Assembly (NCBI GenBank): GCA_033721915.1
Contig: JAWWAC010000011.1
Location: 1,131-65,130 of the forward strand
Source: Oleiphilaceae bacterium
GTDB taxonomy: Bacteria; Pseudomonadota; Gammaproteobacteria; Pseudomonadales; Oleiphilaceae
Direction: 5' to 3'
Length of the DNA stretch: 64,000 bases
The notes under the pieces are model-generated. The model was given only the letters and a program-made list of their open reading frames with translations, was not told the origin of the DNA and did no database searches. Below, one piece after another: positions 8,233 through 50,441 of this stretch; the stretch's first letter is position 1; each line of letters starts with the position of its first letter. The translations under genes and the position numbers were made by a program.

Positions 8233-9138
8233 ATGAAAGCACTGCGAATGGTTCTGATAAGGGCCGGCCTGTCCGGGTTCAGCCGACTGCCCTTTGCCTG
8301 GGGACAGGCACTGGGGGCCTTTTTCGGGCGTCTGGCCTGGTGGTTCGGCGGGCGCTCACGGCAGGTCACGGAGGCCAATCTGGCCGTTGCCTTTCCAGAG
8401 CAGACACCGCAGCAGCGCCGTGCCCTGGCGCACCGCAGCCTGGCGGAGACAGGGCGCACCGTGGCGGAGATTGCCTATATGTGGGAGCGGCCCGTCCCAC
8501 AGTGCCTGTCCCTGATCCGCGAGGTGGACGGGCAGCACTGGGTGGATGAGGCCAGGGAGGCCGGTACCGGCCTGTTGCTGCTGGCCCCTCACCTGGGCAA
8601 CTGGGAGCTGACGGGTCTGTATTTTGCCGAGCACTTCAGTATGGCGGCCCTGTACAGCCCGCCCAACCTGCCAGAGATGGAGGCCTATATGTCACGGGTG
8701 CGTGGCCGCTCCGGCTCCGAGCTGGTGCGGGCCGACCGGCGCGGTGTACTGCGGCTGTTCACCCTGCTGCGCAACGGCGGCGTGGTGGGCATACTGCCGG
8801 ACCAGAACCCCCAGCCGGAGGGCGGCGAGTTTGCCCCCTTCTTTGGCATCGAGATCCTCACCATGAAGCTGGCTTCCAGGCTGGTGAACAAGACCGGGGC
8901 CCGGGGGCTGATTACCTGGGCCGAGCGGCTGCCCGGCGGCCAGGGCTTCCGGCTGTTGATCCGCCCGGTGGATGAGCGGGTCTACAGCGAGGACCTGGCC
9001 ACCTCCGTGGCCGGGGTCAATGCCAGTGTGGAACAGGCGGTGCGCACCGCCCCCGCCCAGTACCAGTGGGAGTACAAGCGCTTCAAACGCCGCCCCGCCG
9101 GGCAGCCCCATGTCTATGACAAGGGGCGCGTCTGTTAG
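8233..9138 (+). CDS. Lipid A biosynthesis lauroyl/myristoyl acyltransferase family (LpxL/HtrB-like)
   Basis: Membrane-anchor N-terminus; LLLLAPHLGNWE (HX4-type acyltransferase block), GILPDQ and QYQWEYKRFK C-terminal motifs typical of the family. It is divergent from glyQS, as in pseudomonads. Confidence 0.8.
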   Translation: MKALRMVLIRAGLSGFSRLPFAWGQALGAFFGRLAWWFGGRSRQVTEANLAVAFPEQTPQQRRALAHRSLAETGRTVAEIAYMWERPVPQCLSLIREVDGQHWVDEAREAGTGLLLLAPHLGNWELTGLYFAEHFSMAALYSPPNLPEMEAYMSRVRGRSGSELVRADRRGVLRLFTLLRNGGVVGILPDQNPQPEGGEFAPFFGIEILTMKLASRLVNKTGARGLITWAERLPGGQGFRLLIRPVDERVYSEDLATSVAGVNASVEQAVRTAPAQYQWEYKRFKRRPAGQPHVYDKGRVC

Positions 9139-9220
9139 CCCATTAGGCAGCTAATGATCTTTGTCTTATGATGACTCCATTGCGCTGAACAACAAAAAAA
9201 CGCGTTCCGGGAGTCCCGTC

Positions 9221-10486
9221 ATGAACCTTGTGCTCTACGCCATTCCGGCTTTTGTGGTGCTGTTGCTGATTGAGCTGTACGCGGATTACCGCTGCCGTAC
9301 CGGCTACTACCGCACCAACGATGCCATTGCCTCACTCAGCACTGGCATACTGAACCAGACCATGGGTTTCGCCACCAAATTTGCCGGTTTTCTGGCCTAT
9401 ATCAGTCTCTGGCAGCTGCTGCCCCACCCGGAACTGGCCATGAACCCCTGGCTGTGGGTGGCGGCCTTTGTCATCTACGACTTCTGCTATTACTGGAAAC
9501 ACCGCTGCCAGCACCAGATCAATGTGCTCTGGGGCATTCATGTGGTGCATCACCAGAGTGAGGAGTACAACCTCACCACAGCACTGCGTCAGCCCTTTAA
9601 CGGCTTTCTTGTCGGTGCCCTGTTCTATCTGCCGATGCTGTTTATGGGGTTTCCGCCGGAGGTGGTGATCACCGTCGGTTCACTGAACCTGATCTACCAG
9701 TACTGGGTGCATACCCGTTTTATCGGCCATCTCGGGCTGTTTGAGTGGTTTTTTGTCACGCCCATGAACCACCGGGTGCACCACGCCATCAACGACCCCT
9801 ATATTGACAAGAACTTCGGCGGTGTCTTCATCCTCTGGGACCGGCTCTTTGGCACCTACCAGGCGGAGCTTGAAGAGGAACCCTGCGCCTACGGGGTGCG
9901 CAAGCCACTGCACAGCTGGAACCCCTTCTTTGCCAACTGGCATGTGCACTGGCAGCTGTTGCAGGACGCCTGGCACGCACGGCGCTGGCGGGACAAGCTG
10001 CGACTGTGGTTCATGCCCACCGGCTGGCGCCCCGAGGATGTGGCACGGGACTACCCGCTGCCCCGCTGCCTGCCAGAGACCCAGCGCAAGTACGACAAGG
10101 CACCGGCCGGACCACTGGTGGCGGCGGTGGTGGCGCTGCATCTGCTGCTGATGGGCTATACCCTGTGGTTTCTGTTTGTGGCCATGAACGAATCCTTCGC
10201 CACCTCGGCACTGCACTTTATCCCACTGGGTGGCGGGCTCTGGATGAATGCTCGCCTGCTCGATCAGCGCTCCGGCGCCGCTCCCATGGCGGTGCTGTTC
10301 TGGTTGGGTTGTGCCGCTCTGCCCTGGCTGGAGGGTGTCTGGCACGGCAGTAGCTGGCTGCTGCCGACGGGGGCCACTGTGCTGATCGCCGCCGTGGTGG
10401 CGGCGGGTCTGTTGCTGGCCATGGTGCTCGGCACGGCCAGGGAGCCCGCAAAGGCACCTGCTGGCGGGGCGCCGGCCGGGGATTAA
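9221..10486 (+). CDS. Fatty acid hydroxylase / sterol desaturase family membrane protein with extra C-terminal multi-TM domain
   Basis: Histidine boxes HRCQH, HVVHHQSEEYN and NHRVHHAIND, followed by about 130 aa of additional hydrophobic segments. Start taken at MNLVLYAIPAF. Confidence 0.75.
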   Translation: MNLVLYAIPAFVVLLLIELYADYRCRTGYYRTNDAIASLSTGILNQTMGFATKFAGFLAYISLWQLLPHPELAMNPWLWVAAFVIYDFCYYWKHRCQHQINVLWGIHVVHHQSEEYNLTTALRQPFNGFLVGALFYLPMLFMGFPPEVVITVGSLNLIYQYWVHTRFIGHLGLFEWFFVTPMNHRVHHAINDPYIDKNFGGVFILWDRLFGTYQAELEEEPCAYGVRKPLHSWNPFFANWHVHWQLLQDAWHARRWRDKLRLWFMPTGWRPEDVARDYPLPRCLPETQRKYDKAPAGPLVAAVVALHLLLMGYTLWFLFVAMNESFATSALHFIPLGGGLWMNARLLDQRSGAAPMAVLFWLGCAALPWLEGVWHGSSWLLPTGATVLIAAVVAAGLLLAMVLGTAREPAKAPAGGAPAGD

Positions 10487-48570: not shown

Positions 48571-49803
48571 TCAGGCTCGACGCGGCTTGATGGCGTGCAG
48601 CCCCAACTGCGTGATGGCGCCGCCGACCGTAAACCAGGCACTTTGCTTGGGCTTGGTGTTTTTGCCCGCAGCCAGTCTTGCCAGCTGAGTTTCATAGAAG
48701 GTAATGTCCAGCATAAAGGCCTTGTCCAGACCTTTGAAGCCGGTGCTGGGCCTTTTCAGCGTCAGGCTGATGCTGTTGTCCGCCAGCAGATCTCGGGGCC
48801 AGGCCGGAGCCACGGCCACCGGGCGGGCCAGTCCGATCAGGTCGGTTGCGCCGCTGCTGAGCGCGTCACTCATGGCAGCACCGGAGCGGAAACCGCCGGT
48901 GACCATAAGGGGCACGGAGGTATGCTGGCGCACGGCTTCTGCGTACTCAAGGAAGTAGGCTTCCCGTTTACGAGTGGACTCCGCCACCTTGTGGCCGGTC
49001 ATGGCCGGGGATTCGTAAGTGCCTCCGGAGATCTCGATCAGGTCGATTCCTGCCTCGGACAGAGCCCTCACCACGTCCATGGACTCCCCTTCACTGAAGC
49101 CGTCCTTCATGAAATCCGCTGAGTTGAGTTTGATGCCAATGGGGAAGTCCTCACCCACTTCCTGACGGATGGCCTGATACACAGAAAGCACAAAGCGGCG
49201 GCGATTCTCAGGGCTGCCGCCCCATTGATCGTCCCGTTGATTGTGACGGGGCGAGAGAAACTGGCTGACCAGATAGCCGTGGGCGCCGTGGATCTGTACG
49301 CCGGAAAAACCGGTTTCTTTGGCCTTGCCGGCAGCGTAGGCGAACTCCCCGATAATCACCTGGATCTCTTCCTCGCTCAGGGCTCGAGGCTTGGCAAACA
49401 TCTTCTCCAGCCCCCGTCCCAGGGGAATGGCGGAGGGGGAAACCGGCTGAGGGTTGAGAAAGCGGGGGATTTGTTTGCCCGGGTGGTTGAGCTGCATCCA
49501 CAAACGACTGCCGTTGACCTGCCCTTCACTGGCCCAATGGCGGAAAGCTTCCAGATCGCTTTGCTGGTCCAGAACGACGTTTTTTGGCTCCCCCAGTGCC
49601 TGTCGGTTGATCATGACGTTACCGGTCATGGACAGGCCCAGGCCGCCTTCTGCCCATGTGCGGTAAAGCCTGGCCAGCCCCGGCGTGGGGTTGTGTTGGC
49701 GGTCGCCAAGCTGCTCGCTCATGGCGGATTTGGCCAGGCGGTTCTTGAGGGGGGCACCACGCTGTAGTGGCAGGTCACTGTTGAGGGTAATGGCGTCTGT
49801 CAT
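48571..49803 (-). CDS. NADH:flavin oxidoreductase, Old Yellow Enzyme family
   Basis: LKNRL.KSAM, QLNHPG, GFSGVQIHGAHGYLVSQFLSP and TGGFR motifs. Confidence 0.9.
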   Translation of the reverse strand: MTDAITLNSDLPLQRGAPLKNRLAKSAMSEQLGDRQHNPTPGLARLYRTWAEGGLGLSMTGNVMINRQALGEPKNVVLDQQSDLEAFRHWASEGQVNGSRLWMQLNHPGKQIPRFLNPQPVSPSAIPLGRGLEKMFAKPRALSEEEIQVIIGEFAYAAGKAKETGFSGVQIHGAHGYLVSQFLSPRHNQRDDQWGGSPENRRRFVLSVYQAIRQEVGEDFPIGIKLNSADFMKDGFSEGESMDVVRALSEAGIDLIEISGGTYESPAMTGHKVAESTRKREAYFLEYAEAVRQHTSVPLMVTGGFRSGAAMSDALSSGATDLIGLARPVAVAPAWPRDLLADNSISLTLKRPSTGFKGLDKAFMLDITFYETQLARLAAGKNTKPKQSAWFTVGGAITQLGLHAIKPRRA

Positions 49804-49832
49804 GAGGACTCCGTTGGCAGGTAGGCATGGGT

Positions 49833-50441
49833 TTATTGACTATTTGAGGGTGCCAGCAACCGATCCAGGAGCTGGTCGAGTGTCTGGTGCAGTGAATCGC
49901 TGTTCCCCAGCAGTTTCATACGCAGGATGGCGCCTTCCCAGTGATTCCAGAACAGGATGCTGATGCTCTCAGGGGACAGGTCCTGTCGGAACTGGTCTTG
50001 TGCCTGTCCCTCTGCCACCAGTTCGGTGAAGCGGTTTTGCCAGCGGTTGTAGGCATCGTTGAGTGCTTGGCGACAGTCTGGACTGGCGGCGCCGATTTCA
50101 GCAGCCAGGTTGCCCAGAAGGCACCCCTGTACACAGTCGTGGCGTTCGAACTCGGCGATCATTTGGCGGTAGAGCTGACGTATTCGCTCCCGTGGGGAAG
50201 TGCCCTGTCGGGCCAGGGCCATGTCCATCAGCCCCAGTAGCCAGTCTGAGTAATCACGGATGATAGCCGCGGTAAAGGCTTCCTTGCTGGGGAAGTAGTG
50301 GTAGAAAGAGCCTTTGGGTACGCCAACCCGATCGAGCACCGCCTTGATGCCTGTGCCGTGATAGCCCTGCTGTGAAAGCAACTCGCGTCCAGCGTTGAGT
50401 AACGAGGCTTTGACCGGGTTTTGTGTCGCAGGGACAGGCAT
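49833..50441 (-). CDS. TetR/AcrR family transcriptional regulator
   Basis: HTH YHGTGIKAVLDRVGVPKGSFYHYFPSKEAF. I prefer the ATG at 50441, because the 15 extra codons of the track ORF are translated repeat (MPVPVT..). Confidence 0.85.
   Translation of the reverse strand: MPVPATQNPVKASLLNAGRELLSQQGYHGTGIKAVLDRVGVPKGSFYHYFPSKEAFTAAIIRDYSDWLLGLMDMALARQGTSPRERIRQLYRQMIAEFERHDCVQGCLLGNLAAEIGAASPDCRQALNDAYNRWQNRFTELVAEGQAQDQFRQDLSPESISILFWNHWEGAILRMKLLGNSDSLHQTLDQLLDRLLAPSNSQ

Follow-up and report, generated by a model that had tools for sequence, protein, structure and literature searches.

The short repeats associated with RAYT-type genes are generally regarded as small mobile units, which spread by inserting themselves into the spaces between genes. 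In the REP/REPIN-RAYT systems (E. coli TnpA_REP and the Pseudomonas REPINs) a Y1 HUH gene is flanked by inverted short repeats, the repeat is scattered genome-wide, and intragenic REPs have been reported in the parts of that literature considered here. TIRYT genes, as presented in parts of Di Nocera et al. (2013, PMC3733652), are flanked by inverted non-REP repeats that often share the motif GGGGWSAS, and their families are moderately abundant, with members occurring singly, as dimers or in clusters. The TnpA_Y1 subclass 2.3 of Quentin et al. (2018, PMC6006769) has the motifs NHYH, WE and YVDLNP (Table 1 of that paper), a median length of 325 amino acids (aa), an insertion in the core and a specific C-terminal tail. 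Short words also accumulate inside genes as DNA uptake sequences, for which the accepted cause is molecular drive (Findlay and Redfield 2009, PMC2817400). Here we describe a 10-base word, GGACAGGCAC (11-mer form GGGACAGGCAC), and a Y1 HUH transposase-like gene that occur together in a 64-kb stretch of DNA, the window, from a 356,890-base scaffold (contig JAWWAC010000011.1) of a metagenome-assembled genome (MAG) labelled by NCBI as Oleiphilaceae, a group that includes relatives of Marinobacter. The word was found between genes and, far more often than expected, inside them, and the best explanation that we can offer for the in-gene copies, with the balance standing about level, is that they are dispersed solo members of the repeat family of the Y1 gene, rather than chance matches or a separate host signal.

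The locus resembles the REP/REPIN-RAYT systems in its Y1 HUH gene, its inverted short-repeat flanks and its scattered repeat, and differs from them in that the word forms no palindrome or hairpin, that its arrays run in one direction with variable spacers and that it seems to have entered genes by substitution and not by insertion; the GTAG or CGTC tag of the REP hairpin foot was not seen in the word or its immediate flanks. With the TIRYT genes and TIRtrons, as described in parts of PMC3733652, it shares a RAYT-like Y1 gene with inverted flanking repeats, the word being so placed at most of the homologue loci displayed here. As to the GGGGWSAS motif, GGGGACAG(GCAC) fits it, and GGGGACAG was found at 8299, 14839 and 28327 of the window and at loci L015 and L033, but many copies start with GGGACAG or AGGACAG. 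The differences are a fixed word of 10-11 bases conserved across many phyla and substitution-type copies in genes, neither of which is mentioned in those parts of PMC3733652, and an upstream flank of the window gene that lacks the word. The likeness to TnpA_Y1 subclass 2.3, again judged from parts of PMC6006769, lies in the length of 321 aa, the NHYH, WE and YVDLNP motifs, the long HuH-to-Tyr spacing and the marine gammaproteobacterial host; those parts report no identifiable REP-like sequence beside the genes, whereas here a non-palindromic word was found at 12 loci, mostly in inverted orientation. Uptake sequences (PMC2817400) are also short words that enter genes by substitution, at weakly conserved residues and in preferred frames; the present word is set apart from them by the transposase-like gene and the arrays, by its sense bias, its cross-phylum range and a dominant frame made of rare codons, and no link to competence is apparent from the sequence. 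It differs from Chi in showing no replication-strand skew (7 places in the window on the + strand and 6 on the - strand), in an orientation that flips with gene direction and in lying mostly in arrays instead of dispersed singles. Relative to the parts of PMC6006769 and PMC3733652 considered, a fixed non-palindromic word for subclass 2.3, its cross-phylum conservation, its sense bias and its entry by substitution with near-saturation appear to be new.

Copies of the word inside genes

Genes were delimited with the gene calls attached to the source contig, and with our own open reading frames at both ends of the window, and codon usage was computed over the 61 coding sequences (CDSs) of the window. 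The 10-mer GGACAGGCAC occurred 25 times, against 0.28 copies expected from dinucleotide-preserving shuffles, and GGGACAGGCAC with at most one mismatch occurred 32 times, against 3.7. Nineteen of the 25 exact copies lay outside genes, most of them in five same-direction arrays of irregular spacing, and six lay inside genes, five in sense and one in antisense orientation. All six in-gene sites had been listed in an initial annotation made from the sequence alone, and the contig gene calls agreed with it both in position and in frame (four copies read as Gly-Gln-Ala, GQA; one read as KDKDRHF in an MBL-fold gene; one running against its gene). The five sense copies compare with 0.11 expected when synonymous codons were shuffled with codons pooled (none of 2000 shuffles reached five) and with 0.16 when they were shuffled within each gene (none of 500 did), an excess of about 30-50 fold over chance; the single antisense copy, with 0.35-0.41 expected, was unremarkable. 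This excess over synonymous shuffles upholds the initial proposal that the DNA word itself, and not protein sequence or codon usage, accounts for the sites. A reading by chance or codon bias was rejected, because the within-gene shuffles keep the codon usage of each gene and still expect only 0.16 copies.

A comparable excess of exact matches was seen in none of 35 composition-matched control 10-mers, AGCAGCAGGC being the only one present more than once (3 copies, 2.67 expected), and one-mismatch variants of the word were not enriched in genes (4 against 2.5 expected). We also observed that 10-mers two or three mismatches away from the word were about 1.3-1.9 times as frequent across the CDSs of the window as synonymous shuffles predict, on the sense strand only and with z about 5-6; this near-word excess is not relied on, since its null is overdispersed and control words containing ACAGG or GGCAC score 5-7 too.

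GGA represents 8.4% of the Gly codons of the window CDSs (GGC 53%) and GCA 11.5% of the Ala codons (GCC 63%), so that both are minority codons, as the initial annotation had judged. GQA tripeptides numbered five, with 6.2 expected by composition, and four of the five were spelled GGA-CAG-GCA followed by C; given a per-site expectation of 0.0085 (P = 2.6e-8), the earlier view that this spelling goes beyond chance was corroborated by the codon table. The protein sequence would allow the word in sense at eight sites of the window, of which five carry it, and it is present at all four GQA sites whose next codon starts with C.

The sites were compared with those of three relatives. A Halomonadaceae MAG (GCA_007692645, loci L123 and L127), whose proteins are 69-89% identical to those of the window, has both the word and the gene. 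The organism of run SRR28998488 (L125 and L126) is closer, at 79-91% identity, and has no word in 10.5 kb, and a soil-metagenome relative (L124) has none in 13 kb, the word being absent from 23.7 kb of these two relatives together. In a census of compatible sites, the exact word was found at 7 of 11 in the two word-bearing genomes and at none of three in the word-less relatives.

Within genes, the exact 11-mer GGGACAGGCAC was present at 8301, 41216 and 42893 on the + strand and at 50000-50010 on the - strand. The copy at 8301..8311 (+ strand) is in sense in the lipid A acyltransferase gene lpxL (8233-9138), where the frame GGA-CAG-GCA encodes AWGQALG. L123 has the identical word at this site, L125 reads GGC CAG GCT C and L124 reads GGT CAG GGC; no indel was found across 120 homologues, and WGQA is common to the closest clade. 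The word here is a synonymous recoding of an ancestral GQA, and the comparison with orthologues, on which the initial annotation had made its idea of a maintained DNA word depend, went in favour of that idea at this gene. A second copy in lpxL (8502..8512, - strand) is antisense to the gene and reads Q-C-L-S in common codons; it is also present in L123 and missing from L125 and L124, the same pattern as that of the sense site. Fourfold sites are about 62% identical between the two genomes that share the lpxL copies.

Two sites differ from their neighbours in amino acid, and at both either state could be the derived one. In the gene of an HlyD-type adaptor (MFP; 40923-42002) the copy at 41216..41226 (+ strand, sense, GQA frame, EQGQALL) aligns without gaps to a G-[D/Q/E]-x-L-L motif, for which the closest relative has GGC CAG ACG (GQT) and the next GGT GAC CGG (GDR), and in the second TetR gene (49833-50441) the copy at 50000..50010 (- strand, sense, GQA frame, AEGQAQD) corresponds to GGT CAG GAA C (GQE) in the L127 orthologue, which matches the word in 8 of 10 bases. 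In the RND pump gene (42009-45104), with its copy at 42893..42903 (+ strand, sense, GQA frame, VGQAQAL), the window has Gly (GGA) where both relatives have Ala (GCC), that is, VGQAQ against VAQAQ and VAEAQ, and this amino-acid replacement completes the word. Replacement was also seen in the second word-bearing genome, since TGTGT of glyS in L123 is spelled with the word, where the window has TQTDT and L124 has TEKNT.

The fifth sense site of the window is of another kind. The MBL-fold hydrolase gene (47463-48488) contains AGGACAGGCAC at 47808-47818 (10-mer 47808-47817; - strand, sense), read in the frame GAC-AGG-CAC as KDKDRHF, and this copy lies within a 45-base in-frame insertion of 15 codons, EIKDKDRHFEELEED (47787..47831, - strand). 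Neither the syntenic orthologue nor 119 other homologues have the insertion, which is thus unique among 120, and its DNA is stuttered like the intergenic arrays (AAGGAC AAGGACAGGCAC ...).

No indel was found at the lpxL, adaptor, RND and TetR sites or at glyS of L123, relatives have near-matching bases at these places, and the residues replaced at word sites are at variable positions. As read from the alignments, the copies of substitution type arose at sites that already matched the word in 7-8 of 10 bases, these same sites have ordinary spellings in the closer relatives that lack the word, and three routes into genes are seen, namely synonymous recoding, amino-acid replacement and one in-frame insertion. 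The initial annotation had set synonymous recoding against an insertion of 3-4 codons, and this choice was too narrow: one site is synonymous, three have different amino acids without an indel, and one is a 15-codon insertion. Its observation stands as a whole and its interpretation is supported in part. The in-gene copies appear, from these comparisons, to be derived, exact, mostly sense and mostly gained by substitution, and their excess follows the presence of the word system. The relative closer to the window is a word-less one. It may have lost the system, after which its words decayed to common codons, or else the words arose twice; under both histories there must be a force favouring the word in the presence of the system.

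Orientation followed transcription. Ten of the 11 places of the window with an unambiguous direction of transcription were in sense (P = 0.006), across at least six flips of gene direction, and given the division of places between the two strands, replication direction does not explain the orientation. In other genomes 23 of 32 arrays between co-directional genes were in sense (P = 0.01, with a crude gene caller). In-gene copies were verified by Pfam domains or contig gene calls in four genomes, and to the five sense and one antisense copies of the window were added two and one from the Halomonadaceae MAG, four and none from the Spiribacter MAG L107, and two and one from the Spiribacter MAG L049, making 13 sense against 3 antisense (P = 0.011).

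Nine of the 13 sense copies are in the GQA frame, three read DRH and one GTGT, a bias towards GQA with P = 0.009 against uniform frames and P = 0.02 against the approximately 37% given by synonymous shuffles. Within the window alone the shared frame (4 of 5) was not significant (P = 0.136 for any shared frame), so the weight that the initial annotation had placed on it was not sustained. Codon preference cannot explain the GQA frame, because that frame uses rare codons. It is best read, and most simply, as a tolerance filter and not as a frame-specific function: GQA would predominate because it is the least harmful reading, a bland surface tripeptide compared with Asp-Arg-His or Gly-Thr-Gly-Thr. 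Two observations were made in the Spiribacter MAGs. In L107 (842-851) the word encodes the G-Q-A-R of an ABC-transporter signature motif (LSAGQARR), and the word can therefore occupy a strongly conserved motif too. In L049 (3787-3905) three copies, two sense and one antisense, fall in a 120-base stretch inside the amino-acid-kinase domain of an N-acetylglutamate-synthase-like gene, whose match is about 24 residues longer than the profile and may hold another word-bearing in-frame insertion.

The transposase-like gene and its repeat family

The transposase-like gene of the window (46330..47295, - strand) encodes 321 aa and is placed in TnpA_Y1 subclass 2.3, as a relative of RAYT and TIRYT proteins. 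This placement was made from the motifs and length listed in PMC6006769 and is to be taken as putative. The protein matched Pfam Y1_Tnp with E = 2.5e-5 (24.8 bits, gathering cut-off 23) and, below threshold, the NCBIfam REP-associated tyrosine transposase model with E = 6e-11 (42 bits, cut-off 80). It contains MPNHYHLVV, HFWEARF and YVDLNPIRAG, corresponding to the HuH motif NHYH, the W motif WE and the Tyr motif YVDLNP; N70, H71, H73, W162, Y183, V184, D185, L186, N187 and P188 do not vary among 13 homologues. Between the HuH and Tyr motifs lie 110 residues, and a tail is conserved in the 13 homologues to about residue 300. Sequence and profile searches of PDB with this protein gave no significant match, the only marginal one being to IS200 (E = 0.26), and a single-sequence AlphaFold model had a pLDDT of 38, too low to be used. 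Three copies of the word lie 3' of the gene (46060..46156, + strand), inverted with respect to it and in sense to the convergent hydrolase gene. In the syntenic region of L127 the hydrolase and MBL genes are 9 bases apart, and in the window this gap is filled by the unit 46004-47462, which comprises the gene and the three words.

One genome per species was scanned for two copies of the word 5-30 bases apart, which gave at least 120 stretches, in pieces of at most 8 kb. The arrays were found in Planctomycetota, Phycisphaerae, marine Gammaproteobacteria, Deltaproteobacteria, Acidobacteriota, Verrucomicrobiota, Clostridia, Actinomycetota and others, in stretches of 27% to 77% G+C. Complete genomes with the word include those of Marinobacter metalliresistant CuT 6 (NZ_CP101118.1) and Halioxenophilus aromaticivorans KU68F (NZ_AP031496.1). 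Full-length homologues of the window protein, 42-59% identical to it, were encoded near word arrays at no fewer than 11 loci, and a twelfth, in L123, is 73% identical. At 8 of the 11 homologue loci displayed, the word is about 70-210 bases upstream of the gene in sense and about 170-320 bases downstream in inverted orientation, and the coordinates of L123 give the same layout. A Geobacteraceae MAG encodes a much more distant homologue, of about 225 residues (NHFH and YIEGNP, resembling subclass 2.1), which is flanked in the same way by GGGGACAGGCAC in inverted orientation. From the flanks of the homologues, the family assignment and the arrays, the word is therefore regarded as the conserved core of the repeat family of this branch of Y1 HUH genes, and that it is the cognate repeat of the gene family is, in our judgement, very probable.

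Homologues without the word were observed on plasmids of Shewanella decolorationis (L128, 19900-20000) and Pseudoalteromonas sp. CuT4-3 (L129, 19830-19990), 46-47% identical to the window protein; the L129 gene is preceded by two copies of AAACCT[A/G]ACACCCATCTTAAATTTTGCACTTAA, and L128 has ...TAGACACCCAG... These other flanking repeats suggest that sub-branches of the family use different words. Among 42 viral contigs with paired words (L130-L171, IMG/VR) none encoded the Y1 protein, and the spacings listed are mostly multiples of 3 (12, 18, 24, 33, 36), so they may be coding repeats, for example collagen-like Gly-Gln-Ala, and not the same system. The tightest packing of the word, with an 11-base period, was seen in one of them, L167. 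In a Deltaproteobacteria MAG (L042, 3560-3850; L013; L030) the arrays are very densely packed, repeating every 12 bases (GGACAGGCAC and two more) with CAGGCA/CAGGGG variants among the copies. The Clostridia MAGs L033, L053, L055, L083 and L101, of 27-32% G+C, have an identical G+C-rich core (...tttgGGACAGGCACnaa...) in very A+T-rich genomes, and in L101 a Y1 protein of 269 aa, which ends in a helix-turn-helix, is encoded 2.6 kb from the array.

In the window, the array at 21136..21334 (+ strand; seven copies or variants) lies between a Sua5-like gene and hemF, and that at 28263..28455 (- strand; five copies or variants) between two minus-strand genes, each in sense to both neighbours. The array at 39987..40178 (+ strand; 6-7 copies or variants), 3' of the cox/SCO1 operon and 5' of the first TetR operator, is absent at the same place in L127 and L126. 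It is preceded by a stuttering microsatellite (39895-39986) of CCCAAAG, GGCCAAG and GGGCCCAAG units that runs into the first word (...cccaaggacaggcccaaGGACAGGCAC), and local duplications of spacer and partial word were also seen beside arrays in L033, L041, L051, L053 and L101. The array at 50431..50544 (+ strand; four copies or variants) lies between the second TetR gene and an ion-channel gene; L127 has no array at this position and has kept the presumed operator, recognised by its conservation. The annotated ATG of the second TetR gene (50441, - strand) lies opposite, on the other strand, the final three bases of the word variant GGGACAGGCAT (50431-50441), and the N-terminus of its product is MPVPATQNP, compared with MNPSP in the orthologue; the array therefore seems to have remodelled the 5' end of this gene. 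Arrays are at different intergenic places in the window and in the Halomonadaceae MAG, even beside conserved presumed operators, which implies that they turn over quickly.

Two solo copies lie outside genes. One (14839..14849, - strand) is in sense, 3 bases 5' of the start codon of trkA, and the other (4691..4701, - strand) lies between tRNA-Pro and brnT, in sense to both. At 4092-4584 and 4901-4977 a BrnT/BrnA toxin-antitoxin pair and the tRNA are neighbours, separated by this solo copy, and the stretch around it, from about 3200 to 5000, has a lower G+C and no long genes and may be a small integrated element.

As single-stranded DNA the array at 21136-21334 folds worse than 197 of 200 shuffles (z = +2.0), and eight single copies of the word had no common hairpin. 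T is missing from the word, and purines predominate in the arrays; the close copies at 40135-40178 have GG/GGG runs that could in principle form candidate two-layer G-quadruplexes on the sense strand. When Rfam covariance models were run on the window, tRNA-Pro was the only match, whether gathering scores or E up to 1 was applied. We also asked whether the word is truncated preferentially at one point in 148 arrays, which might have indicated where cleavage occurs, but no usable signal emerged: long prefixes were in excess on account of point variants such as GGACAGACAC and GGACAGGCAT. A literature search for the sequence of the word returned only unrelated primer sequences.

Possible origins of the in-gene copies

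That a word-specific force acts in genes seems to us highly probable, and this directional force would depend on the system being present. As to its nature, we lean tentatively, and a little short of evenly, towards a molecular drive linked to the enzyme rather than selection. HUH enzymes of the Y1 class act on single-stranded DNA, and the non-template strand of a transcription bubble is such a substrate. The enzyme would recognise the word on single-stranded DNA, most plausibly on the non-template strand while transcription exposes it. Nicking and rejoining by the enzyme, or the repair of its nicks from word-bearing single strands, could then convert near-cognate sites and might also seed the local arrays. 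In its fullest form this proposal is improbable as it stands: a hairpin-less Y1 HUH family would spread a fixed word of 10-11 bases by converting near-cognate sites of the non-template strand, with rewrites in essential genes that change amino acids, and its specificity would be carried between phyla.

Several observations weigh against an enzyme-linked origin. The window gene has words only downstream, with none in its 167-base upstream flank, and the nearest upstream copy in the correct orientation lies in the MBL gene, at a distance of 513 bases. On Shewanella and Pseudoalteromonas plasmids the word does not flank the homologues, which are 46-50% identical; the co-occurrence of gene and word was seen only in 8-kb pieces; and the absence of the gene from the word-less relatives could not be demonstrated. 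All characterised substrates of the enzyme superfamily form hairpins, which the word does not, and we know of no biochemistry for subclass 2.3 and of no Y1 enzyme that rewrites near-cognate sites. The sample is small (5 + 2 + 4 + 2 sense sites), and the lpxL words of the two genomes could be explained by plain descent, the rough probability for both sites together (P about 0.05) being suggestive only. Finally, the pattern would be no different if selection acted on a function of the word in transcripts.

This last alternative is possible, if on the unlikely side. Natural selection would keep the word for what it does in the transcript or on the non-template strand, where it might act as a platform for protein binding or as a pause or anti-structure signal, the transposase-like gene would only supply or recognise the word, and the in-gene copies would be fixed point mutations of small benefit each. 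It accounts well for the strong sense bias, for arrays that lie in intercistronic or untranslated regions and are unusually unstructured and T-free, for an enrichment of exact copies and not of one-mismatch variants, as in a maintained site, and for the lpxL copies common to two genomes whose fourfold sites have diverged so far. However, near-saturation of the compatible sites (7 of 11) would need effective selection for each small site, the arrays turn over fast between different intergenic places of two related genomes, no Rfam family was matched, and the occurrence of one word from Clostridia to Planctomycetota argues for a mobile enzyme specificity and not for a host regulon. The initial annotation had instead pointed to uptake signals or Chi, and a host signal for DNA uptake or for Chi-like recombination that builds up in preferred frames, as known from Haemophilus or Neisseria, would indeed give a similar pattern, given that uptake sequences enter genes by substitution, at poorly conserved residues and in preferred frames (PMC2817400), and that the residues replaced here are variable too. 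The likeness is limited to that pattern. One-directional arrays and inverted flanks round a Y1 transposase-like gene, of which the word is the repeat, an orientation that follows transcription and not replication, the presence of the same word in many phyla from 27% to 77% G+C, and a dominant frame of rare codons, where the frames of uptake sequences track preferred codons (PMC2817400), make this origin very improbable.

Small in-frame insertions of a mobile element describe the MBL site well, where 45 bases are absent from 119 homologues, but as an account of every in-gene copy they can hardly be right, because the alignments are gap-free at lpxL, the adaptor, RND, TetR and glyS of L123, which refutes insertion for four of the five sense sites. 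Practically negligible, in our opinion, is an origin by chance, by the codon usage of an atypical island or by faulty assembly. The host genes at 40-50 kb do have a lower third-position G+C than the rest of the window, but shuffles within genes expect 0.16 copies, control words have no such excess, the independent assembly of another organism shows the same, and the reading frames are intact, with proteins that align over their full length.

If the enzyme-linked drive that we tentatively favour were the force, the word would reveal a new way in which a selfish or domesticated nuclease can shape coding sequence, and it would offer a handle on the substrate of a widespread enzyme family. If the force were selection, transcripts or the non-template strand would carry in this word a signal that is widespread and has so far escaped notice. 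In both cases the word provides a concrete, testable sequence for biochemistry.

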